3,274 nucleotides of DNA from Escherichia coli (GCF_003334405.1 NZ_QOWM01000035.1), one strand, 5' to 3'; counted from the stretch's first letter, positions 1 to 3,274 are shown. Notes: a model not told the origin generated them from the letters alone. Numbers and translations are program-made.

Positions 1-1
1 C

Positions 2-472
2 GTGAACAAACTTGATGATTGTTCGTCTCGTATAAAACTGACGTCACCGCAGTTTAAAAATTACTCTGTGCATATTCGGATGGAAAAAGACCGGTTTTCT
101 GTTGTGGGGAGTGTGGATAGTCGCTCCTGGCGTAGTCCGCATCATGTTTGCACGTTATCCAGAAAACGGAATCCCGTTGATATTGCAGCCGATATCGAGC
201 GAAAAATTCTGGTAAATGCTTCGCAGGAGGTGTTACAGGCGATTGAGTATGAGAAACACCAGGTGGAAAAAAAGGACGAAATTCTGATCCTGAAAGGTAT
301 GTTATCGCAACTTGTCCAGCTTGAAAGCTGGTATGGGGCATTGACAGGCTTTAAAGCTGAAAACGGATTGAATGGTAAAGTCACCGAACAGGGCGACAGT
401 TATGATTTACAGATTCGGGGCTTGAGTATAGATCAACTTGTTAAAATTACAGGGTATTTGAAACAGTTATGA
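2..472 (+). CDS. hypothetical protein, 5' end uncertain (frame is open to the window edge; GTG at 2 may not be the true start)
   Basis: 156-codon open frame ending at TGA 470-472. Its stop overlaps the next ATG (ATGA at 469-472), implying translational coupling. No family recognised by eye. Confidence 0.45.
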   Translation: MNKLDDCSSRIKLTSPQFKNYSVHIRMEKDRFSVVGSVDSRSWRSPHHVCTLSRKRNPVDIAADIERKILVNASQEVLQAIEYEKHQVEKKDEILILKGMLSQLVQLESWYGALTGFKAENGLNGKVTEQGDSYDLQIRGLSIDQLVKITGYLKQL

Positions 473-720
473 GAAAAAATAAAGGTGATGTGACTTATTT
501 TCTTGAAAAAGAAGGTGACAATTACAGGCTTACAAAAAGGATAAAAGCCAGAACAAATGTTAAAATCGGGAACAAAACTACGAAAATTACATTGTATGAT
601 GCCGTACTGAATGAGAATGAATTACAACATATTGATTTTACGTGTGCCGGATTAAGGGAAGACGATGAGACGCCAGTTAAGAATTTAATTAAGGAGTTTA
701 TGTTAAATGAAACCCGATAA
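469..720 (+). CDS. small basic hypothetical protein (83 aa), possible toxin-like partner of the downstream HTH protein
   Basis: ATG 469 overlaps the upstream stop. Lys/Arg-rich product. Its 3' end overlaps the next ORF by 14 nt. No strong SD of its own, consistent with coupling. No motif recognised. Confidence 0.45.
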   Translation: MRKNKGDVTYFLEKEGDNYRLTKRIKARTNVKIGNKTTKITLYDAVLNENELQHIDFTCAGLREDDETPVKNLIKEFMLNETR

Positions 721-934
721 TACACCTGAAAATGTAAAAAAATTACGTTTAAAAGCAGGATTAACACAAAAGGAATGCAGTCATATTTATGGTGTTGGGC
801 TAAGAACCTGGCAGAAAAAAGAGGAAGTTAATACTCAAAACAGTCAAAGTCTGTCACTGGTTGAGTTTGAGTTTCTTTTGTTACTTGCAGGAGAACATCC
901 TGAATACGTGCTCTGCAAAAGGCAGTCAAAATAA
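707..934 (+). CDS. XRE-family helix-turn-helix DNA-binding protein (putative regulator or antitoxin)
   Basis: SD AAGGAG at 691-696, ATG at 707. Translation has an XRE/Cro-C1 type HTH signature (VKKLRLKAGLTQKECSHIYGVGLRTWQKKE). The tail LLLLAGEHPEY resembles HigA/MqsA-type antitoxin C-termini as I remember them. Confidence 0.6.
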   Translation: MKPDNTPENVKKLRLKAGLTQKECSHIYGVGLRTWQKKEEVNTQNSQSLSLVEFEFLLLLAGEHPEYVLCKRQSK

Positions 935-960
935 AATGACCTGTGATGGTTTTATATTAG

Positions 961-1240
961 TTCCTGGAGTTGCGCCCGTAGTTCGCTGACGCTCACACGC
1001 GCAGTACAGCGCCCCGTCCAGGGAAATCCTGGACGGCGTAAACTCGCTGGCGCGAGCGCTAACTGCGGCATTCTGCGGCGCAAATCAGCGTCATCGTTGT
1101 CTGCGAGTCAGTCGGGCTTAGCAGGGCGGGAAGGTGGTCGTGGTTCCGGTCGGTTACGGTAGCGGCGTTGCCGCGTTTCGGGGCGATGTGGCTCCTGTGC
1201 TGCCCTGGTATTTTCGTTCGCCCCTTCCATCCGCTTACGC
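961..1240. other. GC-rich non-coding segment of unknown nature (candidate structured RNA, gene relic or recombination-site remnant)
   Basis: Hand count 177/280 G+C (~63%) against ~36% for 1381-1480. Hairpins: CGTCCAGG-gaaat-CCTGGACG (1015-1035) and GCGGC-gtt-GCCGC (1162-1174). 10-nt-period repeats: CTGCGGC at 1063-1069 and 1073-1079, GGTT(C/A)CGGT at 1142-1160. The only ORFs (1059..1262 -, 1168..1359 +) start at TTG with no SD. Confidence 0.4.
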
Positions 1241-1293
1241 GGATTAAAAAACGTGATAACAATCACTTATCGAGTAAAAAAACGGAAGAACAC

Positions 1294-1322
1294 TTGCAAA
1301 TACGACTTAAGGGTCGTATTAT
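1294..1322 (+). promoter_or_regulatory. sigma70-like promoter for the three-gene operon (TTGCAA, 17-nt spacer, TATTAT)
   Basis: -35 TTGCAA at 1294-1299 and -10 TATTAT at 1317-1322 with a 17-nt spacer, about 60 nt upstream of the first ATG. The predicted leader contains a GGGG-aatgg-CCCC hairpin (1336-1348). Confidence 0.45.
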
Positions 1323-1382
1323 TGTTTCATCGAAAGGGGAATGGCCCCTCTCACAATAGCCCAGCAGGGCAGGAGATTTAAA

Positions 1383-1682
1383 ATGAAATGCTCATCTGTT
1401 TTTACTTCAACCACTAATCATGTTTTCACATTCGAACGAGTAACGCTTTGCACTATTATCCTTATGCATAAGGATACGGGACAACAGTATGTTGTCATAT
1501 TTACTGATAACAATAAAATTCGTGACTATAAAACCGGAATTGTTCCTCAGTTTGGCGAACTTAAGCAGAGTGATGTTGATTTAGTCCTTTTCTACAGGGA
1601 CGAATATGAAAAATATTTTGATTCGTTAAAAGATGGCGATGAATGCTTGAGTTTTAAAGATTTTATTGAGTGCCTTCGTTAA
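1383..1682 (+). CDS. hypothetical protein (99 aa), first gene of the operon
   Basis: SD AGGAG at 1371-1375, 7 nt before ATG 1383. In frame with listed ORF 1341..1682, but the 1341 start lies inside the leader hairpin and lacks an SD. No family recognised. Confidence 0.55.
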   Translation: MKCSSVFTSTTNHVFTFERVTLCTIILMHKDTGQQYVVIFTDNNKIRDYKTGIVPQFGELKQSDVDLVLFYRDEYEKYFDSLKDGDECLSFKDFIECLR

Positions 1683-1690
1683 GCATTATA

Positions 1691-1716
1691 AATGCAGGGG
1701 GGAACCCTGCATTTTC
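1691..1716 (+). promoter_or_regulatory. intercistronic stem-loop (possible attenuator or partial terminator, or mRNA stability element)
   Basis: AATGCAGGG (1691-1699) pairs with CCCTGCATT (1705-1713) around loop GGGAA. A short U-run follows, then the SD of the next gene. Confidence 0.3.
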
Positions 1717-1734
1717 CTGAAAGGAGTTGATTTT

Positions 1735-2109
1735 ATGAAAAGTGTTTATGTTGTTGGCAAAGGTTTAATCGTTGCCGGTAATAAAATTACAATCGATGGA
1801 AAAGAGCATGTCTCGGTAGAAAATAGTGAAAACATTGTTGTCACTGATGATTGTATTAAAATTGGTAATAAAACAGTGGTTTTTAAAGGCAGGAGTATTA
1901 AGATAGAAATACATGGAAATGTAAATAAAATAGTAACCGAAAATGCTGATGTCAGTATTCATGGGAATGCTGGGGATGTTGAAACCGTGAGTGGTGATGT
2001 TGATTGTCGTCAGGTTAATGGCGATATAACCACTGTAAGCGGTGATGTTACTTGTGGCGATGTTTCTGGTGACGTAACCACTGTAAGCGGAGATATAAAC
2101 AGAAAATGA
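1735..2109 (+). CDS. Gly/Val-rich repeat protein (124 aa), predicted beta-helix, bactofilin-like
   Basis: SD AAGGAG at 1721-1726, 8 nt before ATG 1735. Product has recurring V-x-G-(D/N)-(V/I) elements at alternating 8-9 residue spacing (VSIHGNAGDVETVSGDVDCRQVNGDITTVSGDVTCGDVSGDVTTVSGDIN). Listed ORF 1666 start is TTG with no SD. Confidence 0.6.
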   Translation: MKSVYVVGKGLIVAGNKITIDGKEHVSVENSENIVVTDDCIKIGNKTVVFKGRSIKIEIHGNVNKIVTENADVSIHGNAGDVETVSGDVDCRQVNGDITTVSGDVTCGDVSGDVTTVSGDINRK

Positions 2110-2417
2110 TCACGGAATCGGATATGCTTACTGAAGCTAAAAAAATGGCAGTAGAGATGATGTTCTGGCCTGCTTGTCCTGTAGATGATGATTATTGTTT
2201 CGACGCTATAATGTATACATCAGTTATTGACAAGAAGTTTGAAGATGAACATGGGGTATATCTTCATCAGGTTTACAAAGAACTATGCTCAACACCTGAA
2301 TTAAAAAAACTTCTAAAAAAGAAAGCAATAAAATTGATTGCTTTTAAGCACGATATTGATCTTGATTCAGCTAACAAGACTTTAATGAAAAATATGCTAA
2401 GGAGGATTGAAAACTGA
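2106..2417 (+). CDS. hypothetical protein (103 aa), third gene of the operon
   Basis: ATG 2106 overlaps the upstream stop (ATGA at 2106-2109), so translationally coupled. Stop TGA at 2415-2417. No family recognised. Confidence 0.55.
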   Translation: MITESDMLTEAKKMAVEMMFWPACPVDDDYCFDAIMYTSVIDKKFEDEHGVYLHQVYKELCSTPELKKLLKKKAIKLIAFKHDIDLDSANKTLMKNMLRRIEN

Positions 2418-2427
2418 AAAACTGAAA

Positions 2428-2457
2428 GTGATCAGGTTGCTGGAACAACCTGATCAC
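2428..2457. repeat. perfect inverted repeat with 12-bp arms and 6-nt spacer (GTGATCAGGTTG-ctggaa-CAACCTGATCAC)
   Basis: Read directly from the sequence. Not followed by a U-tract on the + strand. Flanked by AAAACTGA(A) direct repeats at 2410-2417, 2418-2425 and 2471-2479. Confidence 0.6.
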
Positions 2458-2491
2458 GTTATCGACAATCAAAACTGAATGAGGTTTTTAA

Positions 2492-2629
2492 ATGTCAACG
2501 CGGCAGATCGTACAGCTTGCTGATTCCCTTGTCAAAGGCTGGGAAACCAGAATTCCGGCAATGAAATTTAGTGAATGGGATCAATTCCGGTGGTGGTTAA
2601 ACTACCTGCAAGGGTATGAAATGTTTTAA
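2492..2629 (+). CDS. candidate small protein (45 aa), absent from the supplied ORF track
   Basis: SD GAGG at 2481-2484, 7 nt before ATG 2492. 45 sense codons then TAA at 2627-2629, followed directly by an intrinsic terminator. Product MSTRQIVQLADSLVKGWETRIPAMKFSEWDQFRWWLNYLQGYEMF is Trp-rich and not low-complexity. Confidence 0.35.
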   Translation: MSTRQIVQLADSLVKGWETRIPAMKFSEWDQFRWWLNYLQGYEMF

Positions 2630-2631
2630 AT

Positions 2632-2666
2632 AAAAAAAAGGGGCTTTCTGCCCCTTTGTATTTTTT
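2632..2666 (+). terminator. rho-independent terminator, potentially bidirectional
   Basis: A-run, GGGGC (2640-2644), loop TTTCT, GCCCC (2650-2654), then TTTGTATTTTTT. The flanking A and T runs can extend the stem and would allow termination in both directions. Confidence 0.6.
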
Positions 2667-2693
2667 GACAAAAATGCTATGTGTAACTATAAT
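2665..2693 (+). promoter_or_regulatory. sigma70 promoter matching consensus (TTGACA, 17-nt spacer, TATAAT) for the hicAB-like operon
   Basis: -35 TTGACA at 2665-2670 and -10 TATAAT at 2688-2693 with a 17-nt spacer. A short inverted repeat AACTA-taat-TAGTT (2685-2698) overlaps the -10 and could be an operator. Confidence 0.6.
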
Positions 2694-2721
2694 TAGTTGC
2701 ATATCTATAGGGGATGGATTT

Positions 2722-2970
2722 ATGGGGAAAACAGATAAGCTACTGGCAAAGTTTTTAAACAGTAAAAAAACGTTTGAATGGGATGAACTGGTCGTTTTGT
2801 TTTCCTCTTTGGGATATGTCAAAAAGGAAATGCAGGGGTCAAGAGTGCGGTTTTTCAATGCTGAAATCAATCACACCATATTAATGCATCGTCCACATCC
2901 GGAAAGTTATATCAAAGGTGGTACGCTGAAAGCAATTAAACAGAATCTGAAAGAGGCTGGATTATTATGA
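2722..2970 (+). CDS. hicA: HicA-family type II toxin (mRNA interferase-like), 82 aa
   Basis: SD AGGGGA at 2709-2714, 7 nt before ATG 2722. Product ends in a HicA-like pattern (GS..., HRPHP, KAIKQNLKEAGLL). Stop overlaps the downstream start (ATGA at 2967-2970). The listed 2656 start lies inside the promoter and is rejected. Confidence 0.8.
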   Translation: MGKTDKLLAKFLNSKKTFEWDELVVLFSSLGYVKKEMQGSRVRFFNAEINHTILMHRPHPESYIKGGTLKAIKQNLKEAGLL

Positions 2971-3274
2971 AACATTTAAAATATAAAGGATATTTAGGCA
3001 CGGTTGAACCCGATTTTGAAAATAATGTCCTGTATGGGAAACTGGCGTTTATTCGGGACCTGGTAACTTATGAGGCTTCTACATTAGCTGAACTGGAACA
3101 GGAGTTTAAAACATCTGTTGATCTGTATTTACAGTCTTGTGTGGAGGATGGAAAGGAACCTGATACCCCGTTTAAAGGCGTGTTTAACGTCAGGCTTGAT
3201 CCAGAACTGCATCGTCGGGTAGCAGAAATGGCGATGGAAGAAGATTTATCACTGAACGCCTTTGTTAATAAGGC
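2967..3274 (+). CDS. hicB: HicB-family type II antitoxin, 3'-partial (runs off window end)
   Basis: ATG 2967 overlaps the hicA stop. Frame is open for 102 codons to the window edge. Product starts MKHLKYKGYLGTVEPDFENNVLYGKLAFIRDLVTYEA and reaches a ribbon-helix-helix-like stretch (FNVRLDPELHRRVAEMAMEEDLSLNAFVNK). Not in the ORF track because no stop lies in the window. Confidence 0.8.
   Translation, partial: MKHLKYKGYLGTVEPDFENNVLYGKLAFIRDLVTYEASTLAELEQEFKTSVDLYLQSCVEDGKEPDTPFKGVFNVRLDPELHRRVAEMAMEEDLSLNAFVNK

Follow-up and report, generated by a model that had tools for sequence, protein, structure and literature searches.

The window considered here is a stretch of 3,274 nucleotides (nt) of Escherichia coli DNA (GCF_003334405.1, NZ_QOWM01000035.1), in which positions are counted from the first letter. 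It carries nine annotated coding sequences (CDS) and one copy of a repeated module of ~430 nt, in which a GC-rich core precedes a promoter with a predicted operator. Over its full length the window is 100% identical to positions 2991–6264, minus strand, of NZ_CP070012.1, the circular plasmid unnamed5 (32,611 bp) of E. coli FDAARGOS_1288, which PLSDB types as IncX4, MOBP, MPF_T and conjugative; of its 1,453 matching places in complete E. coli genomes, 1,438 lie on plasmids. The window is probably the leading region of a conjugative, resistance-type IncX4 plasmid, and not a chromosomal island or a prophage. This context is known in kind, being a known type of region in a known plasmid family. 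The module is clearly unlike the known leading-region promoters and apparently undescribed: the literature searched holds no description of such a regulatory unit.

Gene order and mosaic structure of the locus

Read along the window + strand, the plasmid runs from the replication-origin region to one module copy, followed by the genes for a protein with a DnaJ-type J domain and for proteins of 180, 83 and 75 amino acids (aa), the last of the helix-turn-helix (HTH) type. Then come the second module copy, genes of 99, 124, 97 and 45 aa, a terminator, and hicA and hicB; beyond the window, a gap of 360 bp leads to ddp1/taxA and the relaxase gene taxC. RefSeq annotates nine CDS across the window, with sizes of 75–180 aa and hicB cut at the window end. 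All of them lie on the window + strand, which bears out an earlier note on this sequence that had described every credible gene as small, AT-rich and encoded on that strand. The size range given there, 45–156 aa, was right about small genes, but the supposed 156-aa gene is in reality the 180-aa gene, cut at the window start. GC content amounts to 0.33–0.44 in coding sequence and 0.63–0.65 in the GC-rich block, with 0.40 for the window and 0.41 for the plasmid. The discrete separators reported between the genes are present as well, namely a block with 63% GC, a terminator and two palindromes, and the window contains 8 terminator-like sites, compared with 2.3 expected from shuffles.

A mosaic architecture, also claimed in that note, is evident when the same locus is compared across plasmids: gene content differs in blocks, which end at hairpins or at the core edge. 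Other IncX4 plasmids have positions 1–1722 and 2428–3274 in common with the window at 96–98.5% identity. The epidemic mcr-1 IncX4 plasmid and pCROD2 have these two segments too, and both carry other genes in place of 1723–2427, the block that holds the 124- and 97-aa genes. An IncI2 plasmid has only positions 969–2633 in common with the window. The breakpoints (969, 1722, 2428 and 2633) fall at the core edge, at hairpins and at the terminator, and exchange of gene blocks at modules and hairpins between IncX4 and IncI2 plasmids would account for the mosaic look.

The repeated module, its promoter and its GC-rich core

The module, located at window positions 957–1383, has a second copy in the same plasmid, 99% identical and placed right before the J-domain gene. 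In PLSDB it is found at 2,971 places in 1,191 plasmids, almost all of them conjugative plasmids of the IncX4 (~33 kb) or IncI2 (~60 kb) type, with two copies per plasmid in IncX4, three in the IncI2 plasmid p4222 and five to six in one IncI2-like plasmid. It is also present in 7 GTDB loci and 59 metagenome loci, and in contigs labelled Haemophilus sputorum, Candidatus Erwinia dacicola, Pantoea and Acinetobacter idrijaensis. Module copies are placed directly upstream of a start codon, and in 28 of 30 multi-copy loci the cores all share one orientation, the two exceptions being motif artefacts. An alignment of 30 modules displays the same succession of parts: the GC-rich core, an AT-rich spacer that varies, a TTGnnn-17-TATTAT promoter, a two-hairpin leader, and finally AGGAG, a strong ribosome-binding site, and the ATG codon. 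The first 114 nt of the core are nearly invariant across the IncX4, IncI2, Erwinia and Pantoea elements.

Between the promoter hexamers lies a palindrome with 8-bp arms, AATACGAC-TTAAGG-GTCGTATT (1299–1320), which is predicted to be an operator. It occurs in the plasmid exactly twice, once per module promoter (0.04 occurrences expected). Its half-sites vary by lineage and are always palindromic (ATACGAC/GTCGTAT, ATACATC/GATGTAT, ATAGGTCA/TGACCTAT, ATACCTC/GAGGTAT and ATACCTGC/GCAGGTAT). In the palindrome and leader taken together, 12 of 18 pairs are compensatory; both leader hairpins are supported, and hairpin 1 contains G-U pairs on the + strand, as expected of mRNA.

Each plasmid has a small HTH gene just upstream of one of its module copies. 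Across ~35 loci, the variant of the HTH recognition helix pairs one-to-one with the type of palindrome, and one plasmid with two HTH types carries both palindromes. The 75-aa HTH protein of the window matches the HTH of MqsA in PDB 3fmy (E 6.5e-5), together with TIGR03830 and a PHROG family named "transcriptional repressor". MqsA binds promoter palindromes as a dimer. The HTH gene is the last in the first operon, whose own module promoter bears the operator, and the protein is predicted to be an autoregulated repressor of both module promoters. The co-variation of protein and palindrome points to a burst of expression, gated by the repressor, when the plasmid arrives in a new cell.

Paired changes are found in the GC-rich core as well. 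Among 27 cores, 13 of 60 predicted pairs have changes on both sides, compared with 5.5 in shuffles; none of 500 shuffles reached the observed value, and controls with slid pairing partners gave at most 4. This support comes chiefly from four hairpins; the invariant 5′ domain offers no covariation to test. A coding role of the core was considered and rejected: insertions and deletions of 1, 2, 4 and 5 nt between family members break any frame, and therefore no open reading frame (ORF) in the core is conserved. A 77-aa "hypothetical protein" is annotated inside the core of the IncI2 plasmid pZ0117ECO055-2 (L074 4059–4292), and the same frame-breaking changes suggest that this call is spurious.

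Some cores stand without a promoter. In four contigs from IncI2-like plasmids (L004 42161–42384 and 2–59; L013 5313–5586; L058 7462–7736; L036 1327–1600), such a core occupies the space from virB11 to the coupling-protein gene; it is antisense to these two genes and has the same polarity as the leading-region cores. Taken with the uniform orientation of the cores, the promoter-less antisense copies fit a function tied to one strand of the plasmid DNA and not to local transcription.

Two further variants of the core were observed. An 86-nt fragment (L004 20547–20645, corresponding to window 1043–1128) stands isolated, with a RelE/ParE pair on one side and the next small gene on the other, and looks like the remnant of an older module. 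In a Candidatus Erwinia dacicola contig (L008 633–870), the core lacks one side branch and its 5′ domain is a perfect 20-bp hairpin (GCAGTACAGCGCCCCGCCCG...CGGGCGGGGCGCTGTACTGC). This variant agrees with the predicted long stem; its 3′ half is swapped for unrelated sequence, in which inverted repeats are likewise seen by inspection.

Predicted transfer polarity and possible role of the core

The gap between hicB and ddp1 contains, ~300 bp beyond the end of the window, an inverted repeat of 21 nt that a single base separates from TATCCTGC, located on the window minus strand. The site resembles an origin of transfer (oriT), possessing the nick motif TATCCTG/C and an inverted repeat on the side of taxA and taxC (relaxase). 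Nicking at MOBP origins of the RP4 type follows the consensus YATCCTG/Y; on the strand that is cut, the repeat is located 5′ of the nick, and transfer brings in the relaxase operon last. In RP4, too, the repeat is on the relaxase side. With the repeat on the taxA–taxC side, the window minus strand would be transferred hicB first and would be the template for every window gene, provided that the predicted nick site is correct. All nine CDS face this taxC-proximal oriT, and the same layout is found in IncI2 and IncI2-like plasmids and in F. The RP4-type nick motif is absent from the IncI2 oriT region, and for this reason the transfer polarity of IncI2 rests on the rule that the relaxase enters last. 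The plasmid has two putative oriT copies, at plasmid positions 2602–2707 and 9659–9764, both outside the window, which flank 7 kb containing the window, the origin and the replication gene; the genes in each half of this region face the nearer copy. IncX plasmids have been described as having two oriTs in long inverted repeats (PMC3402527), and whichever of the two is used, the intervening 7 kb would form the leading part.

We consider it likely, though well short of certain, that the window is an IncX4 leading region with repressor-gated modules whose core acts while the DNA is single-stranded. Adjoining the putative oriT on the side away from the relaxase, its DNA would be the first to enter the recipient. 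The operons (J-domain/180/83/HTH; 99/124/97/45 aa; hicAB) all face oriT, and the first two would each be driven by one module copy. In a plasmid-holding cell, the HTH repressor would shut both of these; in a naive recipient, which has no repressor, they would fire in a burst and then shut themselves off. At the GC-rich core, synthesis of the complementary strand may start or pause, just upstream of a promoter that needs double-stranded DNA. A primer at the core would then be extended through the promoter and the genes toward oriT, rendering them double-stranded. A single-strand role of the core, whether in priming, pausing or transcription, appears the most likely one. Going further, we tentatively suggest that the core represents a novel element class, which works on the single strand being transferred and is unrelated to classes 1–3 of the single-strand promoters named Frpo; it would start or pace complementary-strand synthesis upstream of the repressor-gated double-strand promoter.

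Leading regions are known to carry toxin-antitoxin genes and numerous small, uncharacterised genes in uniform orientation (PMC11541004, Samuel et al. 2024). The window resembles the leading regions of F, ColIb-P9/R64 and pESBL (PMC11541004) in its placing next to a putative oriT, in genes pointing toward it, in its small genes and toxin-antitoxin pair (hicAB), and in repeated GC-rich structured elements. Unlike them, it has no ssb, psiB, ardA, klcA or methylase gene recognised among its proteins, its element is unrelated to Frpo in sequence and fold and is coupled to an ordinary operator-bearing promoter, and the IncX4 region is flanked by two inverted oriT copies. With respect to regulation, the R388 network combines repressor-controlled establishment with transcriptional overshoot (PMC3937220). 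As in R388 (PMC3937220) and in RP4 KorA/KorB, one small repressor would have its operator in several promoters, including that of its own operon, which predicts a burst followed by shut-off. In contrast to these systems, the putative repressor here is an MqsA-like Xre protein with predicted binding, and operator specificity has diversified together with the protein.

Several other explanations of the locus were weighed. The window could be an ordinary accessory or maintenance region, which we regard as possible but rather doubtful: the common strand would simply reflect operons, the GC-rich repeat would work on double-stranded DNA as a protein-binding or insulating platform or would persist as recombination homology, and timing would be set by the repressor alone. 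This would agree with the normal double-strand type of the sigma-70 promoter that follows the core, with the lack of strand bias of the core in folding or wobble pairs, and with the many recombination breakpoints exactly at the core edge. However, several core hairpins show compensatory changes, which favours a single-stranded state; the 5′ domain of 114 nt has hardly changed while neighbouring proteins diverge; and the promoter-less cores hold their polarity in an antisense gene setting. The core might instead be a single-stranded-DNA promoter of the Frpo/ssi type, from which RNA polymerase would transcribe the downstream genes on the incoming strand before the duplex is formed. Such promoters reportedly go back to Masai and Arai in 1997. 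Three classes occur in F and IncI1, as GC-rich long hairpins that reconstitute promoter boxes (PMC12672017; bioRxiv 2025.04.03.647016). The module matches the Frpo elements of F and IncI1 in position, orientation and multiplicity, with several same-orientation copies upstream of operons whose genes face oriT, and it has the GC-richness of Frpo1–3 and a conserved secondary structure. Nevertheless, we find this role unlikely: blastn gave no significant match to the F leading region holding classes 1–3, and the transferred strand of F Frpo2 and Frpo3 forms single hairpins of ~150 bp (z −6.4 and −6.6), whereas the module forms several short hairpins in a multibranch fold (z −4.1). Moreover, inspection revealed no −35/−10 pair in the core stems, and a promoter scan none inside the core.

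Marginally less probable again is a function of the core as RNA, be it as a small RNA, as a structured leader or as the 3′ untranslated region of the operon upstream. Conserved structure with covariation would suit an RNA, and as the core lies between two co-oriented operons, read-through from the first is possible. Yet no conserved promoter is found upstream of the core and the 5′ flanks differ between copies, each plasmid's first copy is not preceded by a co-oriented operon, and the orphan copies are antisense to the surrounding operon; in addition, an Rfam scan of the window produced no match at E up to 1, and no terminator follows the core on either strand. As for the origins that the earlier note had listed, namely a defence or addiction-module island (taken here as chromosomal or integrative), a moron region of a prophage or a cassette array (taken here as integron-like), they have become very improbable, even though small same-strand AT-rich genes, a toxin-antitoxin pair, repeats between gene blocks and weak PHROG matches for some proteins would all be at home in them. 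Extension to the full replicon, the check proposed in the note, yields a complete 32,611-bp conjugative plasmid with transfer genes, on which no integrase, integron integrase (intI), phage structural genes or other phage core genes were found; the window itself contains no integrase, transposase or phage structural gene, just as the note had said, and a scan of it found no tRNA or tmRNA. None of 50,697 phage records matched the module or the whole window at the DNA level. PADLOC gave no match for the window proteins, its sole line at E ≤0.01 being a borderline one for the 99-aa protein (E 0.0096) with no stretch passing alone. At 285–430 nt the repeats far exceed attC sites in length, and they bring a promoter and ribosome-binding site of their own. 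The readings as integrative island, prophage or integron fail for want of integrase or intI, of tRNA or tmRNA, and of phage or defence-model matches. What survives of the note is a modular and mosaic region on a mobile element, here a probable IncX4 leading region, with hicAB as the addiction-type module. The mobility gene or attachment site expected just outside the window corresponds to the oriT-like site, taxA/ddp1 and the relaxase gene taxC, and not to an integrase or its target.

Certain observations speak against a leading-region module that acts in single-stranded form. The core alone folds modestly better than shuffles (z ~ −2), and its folding strand is not revealed by wobble counts or by DNA folding energies, with 12 of 26 cores favouring the minus strand. 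The nick is predicted from a short motif, and its 8-mer is at chance level, with 8 copies in the plasmid compared with 3.2 expected. The second, inverted oriT copy (plasmid 9659–9764; 107 nt, 94% identity) lies just beyond the replication gene, and the template orientation holds only with the taxC-proximal oriT; from the other copy, the window + strand would be transferred. The correlation between HTH and palindrome could derive in part from shared descent. No known anti-defence, SSB or PsiB gene is present among the window proteins, and the literature yielded no experimental data on the module.

IncX4 and IncI2 plasmids are the main carriers of mcr-1 and also carry extended-spectrum beta-lactamase genes. 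How plasmids survive their first minutes after entering a cell is under active study and has so far been explained chiefly for F and IncI1, through Frpo-type single-strand promoters. The present data suggest that IncX4 and IncI2 use a different device, shared between them, in which a conserved structured element and a repressor-gated promoter precede interchangeable small genes. If the core is indeed a new single-strand element, these plasmids would possess a movable cassette of ~430 nt that links strand conversion with a timed burst of expression of establishment genes. Once confirmed, the genes behind the module would offer a handle for finding establishment or anti-defence genes, and the module itself could be used as a sequence marker of leading regions in IncX4 and IncI2 plasmids and possibly as a target to block transfer.

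Feature coordinates and gene products

Table 1. Features of the 3,274-nt window, in window coordinates.
Feature	Position	Strand	Remarks
3′ part of 180-aa gene	2..472	+	RefSeq WP_001083906; start 71 nt outside the window; second in the J-domain operon
83-aa gene, "YajB" in some records	469..720	+	overlaps both neighbours
75-aa Xre/MqsA-like HTH gene, "YajA"	707..934	+	last of first operon; predicted repressor of both module promoters
GC-rich core, 63% GC	970..1254	+	repeated, conserved; 5′ domain 970–1083; terminal hairpin 1239–1254
sigma-70 promoter TTGCAA-17-TATTAT	1294..1322	+	palindrome 1299–1320 across spacer
Predicted 5′ leader	1329..1382	+	hairpin 1 ~1332–1352; hairpin 2 1359–1370; Shine-Dalgarno AGGAG 1371–1375; transcription start predicted only
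99-aa cargo gene	1383..1682	+	first gene behind module
Hairpin, 8-bp stem, then TTTT	1692..1712	+	weak terminator-like; just before left breakpoint 1722 of variable block
124-aa beta-strand-repeat protein	1735..2109	+	variable block
97-aa cargo gene	2124..2417	+	variable block
13-bp-stem palindrome	2428..2457	.	right breakpoint of variable block
45-aa ORF	2492..2629	+	absent from RefSeq annotation; own ribosome-binding site
Bidirectional intrinsic terminator	2637..2657	.	closes second operon
Promoter TTGACA-17-TATAAT for hicAB	2665..2693	+	perfect consensus; 8 nt past the bidirectional terminator
hicA toxin gene, 82 aa	2722..2970	+	RefSeq; PHROG 8887, E 3e-34
hicB antitoxin gene, full length 115 aa	2967..3274	+	RefSeq; PHROG 9151, E 1e-49; cut at window end

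Apart from the HTH protein and HicAB, the six other window proteins gave no significant sequence match in Pfam, NCBIfam, PADLOC or PDB. The 180-aa protein likewise has no match in PHROG, family searches with the 83-aa protein were without significant match, and the 99-aa protein, with none in Pfam or PDB, matches in PHROG only a family of unknown function. The 124-aa protein belongs to PHROG 3163, also of unknown function (E 1e-21); it has no Pfam match, and its PDB match to the gp5 beta-helix is below significance (E 0.05). Names such as "tail-associated lysozyme", "phage tail protein" or "DUF4097", under which this protein is recorded, were ruled out, as they arise only from its beta-strand repeats. 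The conserved 45-aa ORF is called in many other assemblies and remains open in an IncI2 relative that differs in four non-synonymous codons.

The genes hicA and hicB, a known component, form one operon with the toxin before the antitoxin and a 4-nt overlap. An overlapping HicAB subfamily designated "hicA-O-B" is typical of IncX4 (PMC11878559), and the window pair agrees with it in the 4-nt overlap, the lack of an internal terminator and the plasmid family, with no notable difference. The perfect consensus promoter suggests very strong transcription of hicAB, dependent on autorepression by HicB.

The pair formed by the 83-aa and HTH genes (469–934) is named YajB/YajA in records derived from pJIE143. 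It is possibly the toxin-antitoxin-like pair "TsxAB" of IncX4 (PMC8725589); transposon insertions in the TsxAB antitoxin gene are not tolerated (PMC8725589). PixR, the known regulator of IncX4, is encoded outside the window, downstream of taxC.

Insertion sequences were noted in two of the plasmids. In NZ_CP070012.1, the pilX operon starts with a lytic-transglycosylase gene that an IS1 (31362–32515) has truncated, and transfer of this plasmid may consequently be poor. In the IncI2 plasmid pZ0117ECO055-2 (L074 1284–3674), ISEcp1-blaCTX-M-15 is inserted past the HTH gene, directly ahead of the core, which means that the resistance gene landed inside the leading region.

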